From an uncultured virus (IMG/VR IMGVR_UViG_3300017763_003721) (taxonomy: Duplodnaviria; Heunggongvirae; Uroviricota; Caudoviricetes), in IMG/VR virus record IMGVR_UViG_3300017763_003721: 64,000 nucleotides of DNA; one strand, given 5' to 3'. The notes below the pieces were generated by a model, which ran no database searches, had not been told where the DNA came from, and saw only the letters and a program-made list of their open reading frames with translations. The translations under genes were made by a program, and so were the position numbers. This document shows, piece after piece, positions 2,048 through 61,938 of the stretch (positions within the stretch are counted from its first letter, which is position 1; the number at the start of each line of letters is the position of its first letter).

Positions 2048-2140
2048 AACACCCCATATTTTCCCTAATAGATGATAAATAAAAGTATACAAAGAAGAAG
2101 AGGTCTTCTTTAGTCATTAGAGAATATAGGAGAATATAAA

Positions 2141-2470
2141 ATGGCAGCAGTAACAAGAGTAAACGGATTAGGTCATGCACACGCAACGATCTATTCAACA
2201 GCAAACTTAGGTTTCGCAGTTGTAGCATGTGGTGCTTCAGTAGCAGCTAAAGGTGGAATTGGTTCCACTATTGAAGCTATTGCACAGCAACTACAGCCAA
2301 TTGCAATCAACAGTGAAGGCACAGCTGGTTTGATTAACATCGTATATGATGCTTCACAAACTAACGCAGCTGGTCTACAAGTTGGCTTACAAGCACTAGG
2401 TACAGTTGATTCAATCGACCTATCATCCGCAACAGTAACTGAAGGCGGACAGTTTATCGTAAGTGCATAA
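2141..2470 (+). CDS. Small Ala/Gly/Thr-rich putative virion structural (decoration-like) protein
   Basis: Own ATAAATA late-type promoter near 2075, AGGAG RBS, followed by a terminator; composition typical of structural proteins. Confidence 0.5.
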   Translation: MAAVTRVNGLGHAHATIYSTANLGFAVVACGASVAAKGGIGSTIEAIAQQLQPIAINSEGTAGLINIVYDASQTNAAGLQVGLQALGTVDSIDLSSATVTEGGQFIVSA

Positions 2471-21368: not shown

Positions 21369-21481
21369 ACGAATTGTCATAAACTGTGCGTTGATCGCTT
21401 TGGGCTGGTTTATTGAAGAAGATCCAGAACTCTGCAGATTCCATAAGAGAGGCGAGCAATCCTCTGTGATTGAAATCGAGG

Positions 21482-21510
21482 TTGACATATAACAATTTCT
21501 GTGTTATAAA
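21482..21510 (+). promoter_or_regulatory. Promoter for tmRNA (sigma70-type, overlapping a TATAAATA late-type motif)
   Basis: TTGACA-N17-TATAAA. Confidence 0.75.
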
Positions 21511-21516
21511 TATATT

Positions 21517-21827
21517 TGTAACGTTGAAGCAATTCAAACGCTAGACAGGACCCGGGGGCGGTACCCGGCGACTCCACCATAAGCACATGAGAGTAGATAC
21601 ACCTGCTTTTCTGTGTATAGGACAAGACCTCGAAAGGGTGCAAGTCGTGTGTTTATGATGGGGTCGAAATAGGATCGACTGTTAGTTAATAGGAGAGTGG
21701 AGTTGCCCGGATGTAAGCTCGGTTAACGCGAACGAAACTTATAATTGCAAATGACAATTATGCGCCAGAGATGGCATTAGCGGCTTAGGCTGTTACGGGG
21801 TAGTTATACCTTGTTACCAAAAATAGC
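21517..21827 (+). ncRNA. ssrA: Circularly permuted two-piece tmRNA (acceptor piece ends 21579; IVS 21580-21659; coding piece starts 21660; outer ends approximate)
   Basis: CGACTCCACCA precedes GGGGTCGAAATAGGATCGAC; acceptor stem has G3-U70; tag 21747-21788 = ANDNYAPEMALAA*. Confidence 0.93.
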
Positions 21828-21831
21828 ACTA

Positions 21832-21865
21832 AAGAGTGTGTTGCAGAGATGCCACACTCTTTTTT
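21832..21865 (+). terminator. Rho-independent terminator after tmRNA
   Basis: AAAGAGTGTG...CACACTCTTTTTT. Confidence 0.8.
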
Positions 21866-21971
21866 AATGGTAACCTTATCTATACAAAGGTTCAATAATA
21901 TAGATAACTACTATGTGAGCAATAAAATTCCCCCCAACGCTCACCTATTAAAGAGTAACAAAGGAAAATCA

Positions 21972-59447: not shown

Positions 59448-60038
59448 ATGATACTAGTTGTAGGCAACGGTGAAAGTCGCAAAGATGTAAACATTAATAA
59501 TATACCTATGAAAAAAATTGGGTGTAATGCTATTTATCGAGATTATTATGTGGATCACTTAGTTTGTGTTGATAAAAGAATGTGTCAAGAAGCTATTAAC
59601 GCAGGATTTCAAAAGAATAGTAAAATATACACACGTCATGACTGGGTTGGATATTTTCAAAACAAAAGGAACTTAAGAACTGTTCCAGAACTGCCTTTTA
59701 CAGGTTACGAAAGATGGGACGTACCTTGGCATTGGGGAGCAGGACCATATGCAGTGTTATTAGCTACAAAACATAGTGACGAAATACACTTGTTAGGATT
59801 TGATTTATATAGTAAAGACCAGTTTACTAATAACATATACAAAGACACAGATAACTATAATGTAGCAACAAAACGAGCAGTTGATCCTAGTTACTGGATA
59901 CACCAAATAGGTCGAATATTTAAACACTTTTCAAATAAAGAGTTTATTATTCATCAAGATGAAGATTGGGTAATACCAAAAGAATGGAAAAATAGTAATG
60001 TAACGGTTGACAAATTAGCAAATCTACGCTATAATTAA
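59448..60038 (+). CDS. Conserved phage protein, glycosyltransferase-29/MptE-like fold
   Basis: VVGNGESR, IGCNAIYRD, LLGFD. Confidence 0.5.
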   Translation: MILVVGNGESRKDVNINNIPMKKIGCNAIYRDYYVDHLVCVDKRMCQEAINAGFQKNSKIYTRHDWVGYFQNKRNLRTVPELPFTGYERWDVPWHWGAGPYAVLLATKHSDEIHLLGFDLYSKDQFTNNIYKDTDNYNVATKRAVDPSYWIHQIGRIFKHFSNKEFIIHQDEDWVIPKEWKNSNVTVDKLANLRYN

Positions 60039-60542: not shown

Positions 60543-61380
60543 AAAATATATTCCAGGCGAAACCAAAGCACAACGGAAGGCGAGGAAAAATGCTAGCAAG
60601 GGTATAACTCCAAGTGCCAACGCACCTCAGTCCGAAGCTCGAAAGCCTGAAATATATAATGAACCAGATCCTAATAAAAAATACTATGTAGTTTGTTTAA
60701 AATGGGGAGACAAATACGGCCCTGAATATGTAAACAAACTATATCATATGGTTCAGCGTAATTTAACTATCAATCATGAATTTATTTGCTTTACTGAACA
60801 ACCAGCTAATCTAGTTCCAGGTATTCGAGTAATAGATTTAGAACTAATGCCTGGAATAGAAGGATGGTGGTACAAGCCCATGTTCTTTAATCCTAATTTA
60901 GGATTAGACGGTGTTGTATTGTTTCTCGATCTTGATATGATAATTTTTAAAAACATTAATAAACTATTTTCATACAAGCCAAACGAATTTATAATCATAC
61001 AAGACTTTAATAGGCATGTTGTACGCAATTATGATAAATTTAATTCTAGTATTTTTAGACTAAACACTGGACAACATGCTCAAGTCTATCATGATTATAT
61101 GGCAGATAAAAATAATATCAGTAGAAGGTTCCAAGGAGATCAAGATTGGATACGGCATTCAATAAAAGATGAATATAATTATTGGCCTGTAGATTGGATA
61201 CAAAGTTATAAATGGGAAATGAGAGGAAAGCCTCAAATGACTGGAGGTCCAAGAGGTACTAGGGATTTTGTAACTAAAGGAGAACCTGCTCTCCTAGATG
61301 AAACATCTATTGCTGTCTTTCACGGAGATCCTAATCCACATTATTGTAAAGACGACTGGGTTCAAAGAAACTGGAAATAG
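60535..61380 (+). CDS. Glycosyltransferase (GT-A, GT8-like)
   Basis: CLKWGDKY, WWYK, FLDLD, NSS, GDQDWI, FHGDPNP. Confidence 0.75.
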   Translation: MAKKYIPGETKAQRKARKNASKGITPSANAPQSEARKPEIYNEPDPNKKYYVVCLKWGDKYGPEYVNKLYHMVQRNLTINHEFICFTEQPANLVPGIRVIDLELMPGIEGWWYKPMFFNPNLGLDGVVLFLDLDMIIFKNINKLFSYKPNEFIIIQDFNRHVVRNYDKFNSSIFRLNTGQHAQVYHDYMADKNNISRRFQGDQDWIRHSIKDEYNYWPVDWIQSYKWEMRGKPQMTGGPRGTRDFVTKGEPALLDETSIAVFHGDPNPHYCKDDWVQRNWK

Positions 61381-61383
61381 TGG

Positions 61384-61412
61384 TTGACAACGATAAATAG
61401 GTGTGTTATAGT
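61384..61412 (+). promoter_or_regulatory. Sigma70-type promoter of the leader/tRNA operon
   Basis: TTGACA-N17-TATAGT with TG extended -10. Confidence 0.8.
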
Positions 61413-61437
61413 AAATACACAATAAGGAATTAGAGTA

Positions 61438-61503
61438 ATGAAGAACACAAGACAAATAATATCTAATATATGGTGCCCACCTTTTGGGAGGGGTTTGTTT
61501 TGA
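61438..61503 (+). CDS. Putative attenuator leader peptide MKNTRQIISNIWCPPFGRGLF
   Basis: TAAGGA SD; contains ATA-TGG-TGC-CCA matching the downstream tRNAs; overlaps the antiterminator arm. Confidence 0.8.
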   Translation: MKNTRQIISNIWCPPFGRGLF

Positions 61504-61562
61504 TGTGATTTATTTACATTAAGTTTTAAACAAGCCCCAAGCGAAAGCAAGGGGCTTTTTTT
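61490..61562 (+). terminator. Conditional terminator (61532-61562) with competing antiterminator (61490-61538)
   Basis: AAGCCCC...GCGAAAGC...GGGGCTTTTTTT; GGGGTTTGTTT pairs with AAACAAGCCCC. Confidence 0.8.
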
Positions 61563-61564
61563 AT

Positions 61565-61638
61565 GGGTGTGAAGTGTTACGGTAGCACGGCGGTCTCCAA
61601 AACCGTAAGCTGGGGTTCGACTCCCTACACGCCCGCCA
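61565..61638 (+). tRNA. trnW: tRNA-Trp (CCA)
   Basis: Acceptor GGGTGTG/CACGCCC, G73, CT-CCA-AA loop, encoded CCA. Confidence 0.93.
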
Positions 61639-61715
61639 CGGAGCATAGCACAGCTTGGTAGTGCGCCTGGTTTGGGACCAGGAGGTCGTAGGTTCGAATC
61701 CTACTGCTCCGACCA
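61639..61715 (+). tRNA. trnP: tRNA-Pro (TGG)
   Basis: C1-G72 acceptor CGGAGCA/TGCTCCG, TT-TGG-GA loop, encoded CCA. Confidence 0.95.
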
Positions 61716-61722
61716 ATTTTAC

Positions 61723-61799
61723 GGGCTCTTAGCTTAGTTGGTTAAAGCTGTCCGCTCATAACGGATCGATCGTTGGTTCGAATCCAACAGGGCCCACCA
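61723..61799 (+). tRNA. trnI2: tRNA with CAT anticodon, most likely Ile2 (lysidine, reads AUA)
   Basis: GGGCTCT/AGGGCCC acceptor and CCGCTCATAACGG arm resemble bacterial Ile2; lacks the initiator C1:A72 mismatch and 3 G-C anticodon pairs. Confidence 0.8.
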
Positions 61800-61800
61800 G

Positions 61801-61874
61801 GAGGGTATGGCAGAATGGCTATGCATCGGATTGCAAATCCGCTTATCTCGGTTCGACTCCGGGTACCCTCTCCA
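61801..61874 (+). tRNA. trnC: tRNA-Cys (GCA)
   Basis: GAGGGTA/TACCCTC acceptor, U73, TT-GCA-AA loop, encoded CCA. Confidence 0.95.
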
Positions 61875-61938
61875 AGTTATTAGTTGACATATGAAACAAT
61901 AGATAGTATAATTATATGTAAGCTATGAGAGGATTCTG

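Follow-up and report, generated by a model that had tools for sequence, protein, structure and literature searches.

The attenuators of amino acid operons (E. coli trpL, hisL, pheL, leuL, thrL, and ilv; S. meliloti trpL) share a design in which a short promoter-proximal open reading frame (ORF) holds regulatory codons, the transcript can fold into overlapping helices that pair segments 1:2, 2:3, or 3:4, the last of these being an intrinsic terminator, and the stop codon lies where a terminating ribosome masks segment 2. Here, we describe a putative instance of this design ahead of four tRNA genes in an uncultured virus (Caudoviricetes; IMG/VR record IMGVR_UViG_3300017763_003721), within a stretch of 64,000 nucleotides that we call the window. 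From sequence comparisons and folding models, we consider it probable that this locus is a trp-type ribosome-mediated attenuator of transcription through which the phage regulates its own tRNA genes. Such a unit would be multivalent, as the thr and ilv leaders are, but would differ from the attenuators of amino acid operons in three respects: it controls tRNAs, with tRNA-Trp leading, rather than biosynthetic enzymes or synthetases, such that the sensed molecule is also the product; it relies on single sensor codons instead of codon runs; and it is borne by a phage. In addition, the Rfam leader families scored below their gathering thresholds (Trp_leader, RF00513, 13.0 bits for a threshold of 41; for Thr_leader and Phe_leader, both with a threshold of 55, the scores were 17.5 and 14.9).

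Other described systems resemble parts of this arrangement. In pheST/pheM, a leader peptide reading Phe codons controls a component of the translation apparatus; its output is a synthetase, whereas that of the phage unit is a tRNA. An attenuator-like leader was also considered for the tRNA-Phe genes of E. coli, but pheV has neither leader nor terminator upstream. T-box riboswitches, like the proposed phage unit, are transcription attenuators responding to the charging state of a specific tRNA, but they bind uncharged tRNA directly and without a ribosome, are longer, and control synthetase or amino acid genes; the phage leader is about 145 nt long and gave no Rfam match to the T-box at the gathering threshold or at E values up to 10. 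Finally, the tRNA clusters of T4, T5, and other phages are, as here, blocks of tRNA genes that supplement host decoding. Why phages carry tRNAs, and how their supply is timed and dosed, is an open question for which current ideas invoke codon-usage compensation and escape from tRNA-cleaving defences. A full-text literature search, whose scope excluded subscription journals and supplements, returned no leader-peptide attenuator located before tRNA genes, phage clusters included.

Leader codons and array anticodons

The preliminary description of this locus, drawn from the letters alone, had proposed a trp/his-type attenuator with control codons matching the tRNAs under its control, a proposal that the comparative evidence below supports. 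It had named a promoter, a Shine-Dalgarno (SD) motif, a 21-codon leader ORF, a block of four control codons with further ATA codons before it and CCT after it, a terminator, and four tRNA genes, all of which are present in the sequence where it placed them (table 1), the tRNAs being called by ARAGORN and also counted as four by Rfam. The terminator was missing from our consensus terminator scan because that scan was limited to loops of 3-8 nt. Between the terminator and tRNA-Trp there is no space for a promoter, so any transcript of the array must pass through the terminator. By our own estimate, based on the codon usage of the window's 51 long ORFs, the chance that a 21-codon ORF contains four adjacent codons cognate to the four tRNAs is about 3 in 100,000.

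Table 1. Parts of the putative attenuator and of the tRNA array, in window coordinates
Feature	Position	Strand	Remarks
Sigma-70-type promoter, TTGACA-N17-TATAGT, TG ahead of the -10	61384..61412	+	11/12 consensus matches
SD, AAGGAA	61424..61429	+	8 nt 5' of the ATG
Leader ORF, 21 codons and TGA, MKNTRQIISNIWCPPFGRGLF	61438..61503	+	
Segment 1, ACACAAGACAAAU	61445..61457	+	Predicted partner of segment 2 in a ribosome-free leader (minimum free energy folds)
Sensor codons, ATA ATA TCT AAT ATA TGG TGC CCA CCT	61456..61482	+	
Core block, ATA-TGG-TGC-CCA	61468-61479	+	Codons 11-14; further ATA at codons 7 and 8, CCT at codon 15
Segment 2, GGGGTTTGTTT (61490-61500) and stop codon	61490..61503	+	5' half of the antiterminator
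Segment 3, AAACAAGCCCC	61528..61538	+	Common to the antiterminator and the terminator 5' arm (61532-61538)
Intrinsic terminator (3:4), AAGCCCC/GGGGCTT, inner GC-GAAA-GC, T7	61532..61562	+	Ends 2 nt 5' of tRNA-Trp
tRNA-Trp (CCA), array gene 1	61565..61638	+	ARAGORN, Rfam
tRNA-Pro (UGG)	61639..61715	+	ARAGORN, Rfam
CAT-anticodon tRNA	61723..61799	+	ARAGORN (labelled Met), Rfam
tRNA-Cys (GCA), last gene of the array	61801..61874	+	ARAGORN, Rfam

Related units were sought with patterns that left out the sensor codons, namely the tRNA-Pro (in viral contigs), the promoter alone (in viral and metagenome contigs), and segment 2 with the terminator alone (in viral contigs). Pooled from marine viral and metagenome contigs, the family amounts to 169 units with 88 distinct ORF calls, a few of which have mis-called starts, and with about 85 distinct leader peptides. 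The promoter-alone scans returned 36 distinct units, each with an SD, an ORF of 14-23 codons containing an in-frame TGG, a terminator, and tRNA-Trp; the other 80 of the 116 distinct matches to this pattern had no tRNA-Trp and look like chance matches or other promoters. The pattern joining segment 2 to the terminator found 120 viral loci, from an estimated 140 or so in the collection. Across 102 distinct units, the promoter TTGAC[AT]-N16/17-TAnnnT is kept in 89, an SD-like motif in 100, and an ATG or GTG start in 101, and the lengths of the leader ORFs differ by whole codons. Seven further pattern matches contain no in-frame start giving at least 12 codons, and the stop lies earlier or later there.

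Relatives were also sought through the genes flanking the locus. The gene upstream has 80 related loci, only 2 of them with the tRNA block, and the gene downstream has near-identical relatives only; the nearest record (G001) has no match to the leader/tRNA stretch. This search recovered one diverged relative (L002) with the same promoter, a 19-codon leader MRQAIWLFYIWCPAQLGLS, a terminator, and the array Trp-Tyr-Pro-CAT-Cys. Compared with the window, TAT replaces AAT beside the core block and a tRNA-Tyr has been added to the array, along with a synonymous CCG in place of CCA.

The preliminary description had suggested checking whether leader codons co-vary with array anticodons among relatives, and they do. 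Our test set consists of 70 distinct leader/array pairs with complete arrays, that is, with at least 140 nt of sequence beyond the last tRNA (40 of 161 units were left out as incomplete before duplicates were collapsed), and codons 2 to n-5 were taken as the sensor, so that the part fixed by segment 2 is excluded. A tRNA-Trp together with a leader TGG is found in 69 of the 70, and all 69 leaders followed by a tRNA-Trp have the Trp codon. The association extends to Cys codons (34/34 leaders with tRNA-Cys in the array versus 24/36 without; p = 1.7e-4), to Tyr codons (8/8 vs 29/62; p = 0.0056), to the codon cognate to Ser(tga) (11/11 vs 29/59; p = 0.0017), and to ATA, present in 15/15 leaders whose array has a TAT or CAT tRNA versus 10/55 of the others (p = 4.5e-9); for Pro codons, the counts are 35/35 versus 30/35 (p = 0.054). 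In total, the leader of the same unit contains a cognate codon for 120 of the 136 tRNAs other than tRNA-Trp, when permuting arrays among leaders yields 88.5 ± 3.9 matches (maximum 104 in 5000 permutations) and random stretches of the window's genes yield 45.2 ± 5.3. The match rate peaks at the second tRNA (56/58) and drops toward the distal end of the array.

Since relatedness inflates such counts, we ran within-clade and tree-independent controls. With clades built on non-sensor sequence (promoter and 5' untranslated region, post-stop region, and tRNA-Trp), permuting arrays within 18 clades gave 99.2 ± 3.1 matches and within 31 clades 108.2 ± 2.8, none of the 5000 permutations reaching 120 in either case; even within 48 clades, whose members are at most 0.15 apart in non-sensor sequence, the expectation was 115.2 ± 1.7 (p = 0.0026). 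Tree-independent pairs were drawn for seven traits on supported branches, with means taken over 200 pairings. Changes in the same direction numbered 4.2 of 7 pairs for ATA, 3.5 of 7 for Ser, 3.2 of 5 for Tyr, 2.2 of 7 for Cys, and 2.1 of 7 for Pro, with none in the opposite direction for these five traits; for Gln, they were 0.9 against 1.0 opposite (4 pairs), and for Gly, 1.0 against 1.3 (4 pairs). Summed informally over the seven traits, whose pairs share rows, about 17 changes go the same way versus about 2 the opposite way.

Individual leaders illustrate this correspondence. For five leader types with truncated loci, predictions of the array were noted before any arrays were seen, and three of these could afterwards be checked on identical leaders or close relatives: ICIICWPP, which has three ATA codons, is followed by Trp-Cys-Ile(tat) in an incomplete array, PIYWYPIL by Trp-Ile(tat)-Tyr-Pro with no Cys, and NWCSPS by Trp-Lys-Pro-Ser(tga)-Gln-Cys. 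Likewise, FYWYPP pairs with a Trp-Tyr-Pro array, ITYWPLL with Trp-Tyr, and KHIQQYCIRW, a leader free of Pro codons, with Trp-Ile-Lys-Gln-Cys. The choice among Pro codons also fits the array anticodons: leaders use CCA 80 times, CCG 27, CCT 7, and CCC 2, when in the window's own genes CCT and CCA are equally frequent (1.71% each) and CCG is rare (0.34%).

The reading of the ATA codons depends on the CAT tRNA, which the preliminary description took for an Ile2 rather than a Met acceptor. In the window, its G1 pairs with C72, and this paired end rules it out as an initiator. ATA occurs in the leaders of all 9 arrays that include a CAT tRNA, versus 16 of the 61 without, and C4-G69, a TilS identity element of E. 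coli tRNA-Ile2, can be read in 8 of the 9 sequences. Its BLAST relatives are annotated as a mixture of Met and Ile, the sole E. coli match being annotated tRNA-Ile. The annotations leave the choice between Met and Ile divided, and this tRNA is likely of the ATA-reading Ile2 type.

Folding of the leader and position of the ribosome

The leader of the window folds at -39.6 kcal/mol, better than 200 of 200 shuffles (z = -4.0). As first proposed, the end of the leader ORF can pair with the 5' arm of the terminator, GGGGTTTGTTT with AAACAAGCCCC, and inside this 2:3 stem TGATGTGA pairs with TTACATTA; the predicted energies are -23.6 kcal/mol for the 1:2 region, -21.6 for 2:3, and -15.3 for the 3:4 terminator. 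The small hairpin at about 61475-61494, initially suggested as the 1:2 protector, was displaced by a better partner for segment 2 in the folds, ACACAAGACAAAU at 61445-61457, and the minimum free energy fold of the window contains this 1:2 helix. The stretch forming segment 2, which has the stop codon inside it, encodes the conserved C-terminal residues G-R-G-L-F.

In an alignment of 97 distinct leaders, pairing in the terminator amounts to 94.4%, and both sides have changed in 5 pairs and 52 cells; out of 500 shuffles, 3 reached this pair count and none the number of cells or the covariation score. The antiterminator, in which the GGGG..GTCTTGA of segment 2 pairs around a central hairpin with the stretch ending in the terminator CCCC, is 84.6% paired versus at most 62.9% in slid controls, and its GGGG:CCCC core is 98.6% paired. 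For segment 1, TCAAGAC (codons 2-4) pairs with GTCTTGA at 76.7% versus at most 45.9% in slid controls, and this helix has one covarying pair, at the second base of the stop codon, which goes from C-G to U-A where TGA becomes TAA. For both the antiterminator and the 1:2 helix, pairing is conserved and covariation is little.

Masking the leader with a ribosome, another check initially proposed, was modeled on the window. When all sequence as far as 13 nt beyond the A-site codon's first base is masked and the remainder is folded, the terminator has a predicted probability of 0.02-0.09 while the A site lies at any of codons 2-14, except for codon 10 (0.64), and of 1.00 from codon 15 on, as it has with no ribosome at all. 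The window would thus switch from antiterminator to terminator between codons 14 and 15, making ATA-TGG-TGC-CCA the final four stall positions that spare the antiterminator.

Across the family, the geometry was scored on transcripts cut before the 3' arm of the terminator. The 5' arm is then sequestered at about 0.99 when the ribosome stalls at the Trp codon or before it, a value that drops below 0.1 once the stall is at Trp+3 or +4, and the switch falls at Trp+0 to +3. At an offset of 13 nt, the last permissive codon is CCA in 43 members, UGG in 32, and CCG in 7, with a shift of about one codon at offsets 11 and 15. In these models, the stop is placed so as to mask segment 2 and the sensor codons so as to spare it.

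Proposed feedback and competing explanations

On this reading, transcription would start at the promoter and a ribosome would load on the 21-codon leader. If the ribosome reached the stop codon, it would mask segment 2 and let the terminator form; if no ribosome were present, 1:2 pairing would likewise leave the terminator free, and in either case transcription would end 2 nt before tRNA-Trp. If charged cognate tRNA were scarce, the ribosome would wait at the ATA/TGG/TGC/CCA block, segment 2 would be free to pair with segment 3 as the antiterminator, the terminator would be blocked, and the polymerase would read on through Trp-Pro-CAT-Cys, whose tRNAs RNase P and other processing enzymes would release. 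More tRNA would then speed the decoding of the leader and turn the array off, so that the supply of tRNA would be under negative feedback. The sequences show the parts, how far they are conserved, the alternative pairings, and the codon/anticodon co-variation, whereas we infer that the leader is translated, that ribosomes stall on it, that read-through is regulated, and that the loop exists. The fuller form of this idea, a multi-input autogenous feedback in which a translated test gene gauges how fast given codons are decoded and opens exactly those tRNA genes when decoding is slow, is put forward tentatively, as something a little short of an even prospect. A link to anticodon-nuclease defences would be pure conjecture.

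If it holds, a phage would measure decoding speed directly and make tRNAs on demand, and could thereby answer the depletion or cleavage of host tRNAs during infection. The textbook attenuation of amino acid operons would extend to a new output, the sensed molecule itself, and the control of viral tRNA genes might follow a general principle that is not known to have been described. Such a unit would also offer a small natural device for sensing how available individual tRNAs are, with a simple reporter as readout, and the 85 or so leader variants with differing arrays form a natural, designed-looking experiment able to guide mutagenesis.

Several observations weigh against this reading. Among the 70 pairs, Gln codons are not significantly associated with tRNA-Gln (7/8 leaders with it vs 39/62 without), and there is no codon/array association for Gly(tcc) (1/4), Glu(ttc) (1/4), Arg(acg) (1/4), Arg(gcg) (0/4), or Ala (0/1). 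In the tree-independent tests, no trait is significant alone, each having too few informative pairs. The leader MSQTNTTYITCWPPSGGMS is followed by tRNA-Trp alone in 9 records and MSKTIRTQLCWPLRGMS in 8, and many leaders retain Cys, Pro, or Tyr codons when the array has no such tRNA, although in one Cys-codon leader of this kind a tRNA-Cys is found further downstream. Leaders are moreover rich in Thr codons, when tRNA-Thr sits 5' of the attenuator and beyond its control. Given these counter-examples, the rule holds in one direction only: when the array contains a core-set tRNA, the leader contains its codon, whereas a leader codon does not imply the tRNA.

The structural side has its own difficulties. 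In full-length equilibrium folds, about 92% of members favor the terminator over the antiterminator at any stall position, and full-length masked folds show the expected switch in the window's clade only; as the equilibrium test fails across the family, the switch must be kinetic, as the trp attenuator is also described to be. Ribosome-free cut transcripts favor 2:3 as well, such that 1:2 must form first if an untranslated transcript is to terminate. The antiterminator has no significant compensatory covariation in the 97-leader alignment, and in a short-spacer clade, a ribosome at the second Pro codon would already overlap part of segment 2. Lastly, six RNA runs hold parts of the stretch, and the contigs of 4 of them cover the neighboring genes and part of the tRNAs and leave the leader uncovered (61378-61593), which we list here although it is evidence for neither side.

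An improbable alternative is an ORF that codes for a small, independently functioning protein, with an ordinary leaky terminator read through constitutively and a codon match due to shared descent or chance. The peptide is indeed conserved (xTNTxYITCWPPxGGMS and variants), many leaders have codons for tRNAs absent from the array, and alphaproteobacterial trpL peptides are reported to be active in trans (PMC7298713). However, the order of residues is not kept (WC or CW; C replaced by N or Y) when composition follows the array, and the co-variation described above persists inside close clades. Moreover, segment 2 appears to dictate the C-terminal residues and segment 1 those at the N-terminus, and the stop codon falls exactly within segment 2.

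Leaders might also act through arrest by the nascent peptide, at Pro-Pro in relation to EF-P or upon a small molecule as in TnaC, and so report a general state of translation or a metabolite rather than how well specific tRNAs are supplied. Diprolyl motifs are known stall sites, and WPP or CPP motifs are common in the family. However, many members have a single Pro (WPL, WCPT, WCPS) or none (WCLTL, CIRWF), neither a fixed peptide motif nor its spacing is kept, and the ATA, Tyr, Ser, and Cys codons that track array content are left unexplained, which makes this possibility quite unlikely in our view. A switch in the leader RNA to which a protein or another RNA would respond, such as a T-box-like tRNA sensor or a repressor, with an incidental ORF, would agree with the z-score of the leader fold and with a palindrome across the -10 that could bind a repressor, but is the least credible of the three, being at odds with the SD, start, and in-frame stop present in nearly all units, with indels that keep the frame, with the lack of any Rfam family at its gathering score, and with a leader too short for a T-box. 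To judge from the compared sequences, each of these rivals fails on the co-variation or on the conserved frame.

Returning to the favored attenuator, the family may descend from a host trp attenuator, an idea prompted by the resemblance of the leader N-terminus to S. meliloti peTrpL and by the alphaproteobacterial-type transfer-messenger RNA (tmRNA) of the window. In the S. meliloti trpL peptide given in PMC7298713, the first ten residues resemble the window's MKNTRQIISNIW, which provides a lead on origin only.

Genomic surroundings and unusual tRNAs

The contigs of the family are marine, some of them 187-357 kb long, and a scan of one genome per prokaryote species gave 1 true match, on a 335-kb contig of a metagenome-assembled genome, and 2 chance matches. 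The window itself looks like part of a large marine phage and holds RNR, DNA ligase, UvdE, a PTPS/QueD-like gene, and a tryptophan halogenase-like gene, as well as a permuted alphaproteobacterial-type tmRNA at 21478-21879 (Rfam, 106.6-106.9 bits) with the tag peptide ANDNYAPEMALAA, a type that hints at an alphaproteobacterial host.

Around the tRNA block, perfect promoters TTGACA-N17-TATAAT (12/12) stand at 61884-61912 and 60007-60035, ahead of the flanking genes, and the region looks like a set of early units, each with its own promoter. A DNA palindrome spans the -10 of the leader promoter (61400-61424); it reads TGTGT..ACACA in the window and TGTAT..ATACA in relatives, both arms having changed, and a dimeric repressor may use it as operator. 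Many relatives have further tRNA genes immediately 5' of the attenuator promoter, namely Thr(tgt), Leu(tag), Glu(ttc), Gly(tcc), and Ser(gct); as these are outside the unit, the attenuator would gate only a sub-block of a larger tRNA region. Amid such upstream tRNA genes, L117 has a near-threshold match to the manA RNA motif (2135-2343, minus strand; 49.6 bits against a gathering score of 55.2, E = 5e-11).

In 36 of 160 units (e.g., L117, reverse strand), a structured insert of 60-140 nt separates the terminator from tRNA-Trp. Its closing stem ACUACACU/AGUGUAGU is conserved, its interior is variable, with 26 distinct versions, and no Rfam family matched the insert, which may represent a mobile hairpin element or a small stable RNA. 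In two further loci, L162 and L190, an ORF of 50 codons follows the same type of promoter and precedes a terminator with a Met(cat)-Val-Asp(-Ala-His) array behind it; this ORF may be a second kind of leader.

Some of the tRNAs behind the attenuators are themselves unusual. Several tRNA-Trp(CCA) genes in this position are 85-88 nt long with a long variable arm (L152, L188/L191, L232). The Ile(tat) genes called by ARAGORN (L113 1658-1751; L255, L259, L266, L284) are 94 nt long, with a long variable arm and an A73-CCA end, a type-II scaffold that is unusual for tRNA-Ile, and these UAU tRNAs accompany leaders with 3-4 ATA codons.

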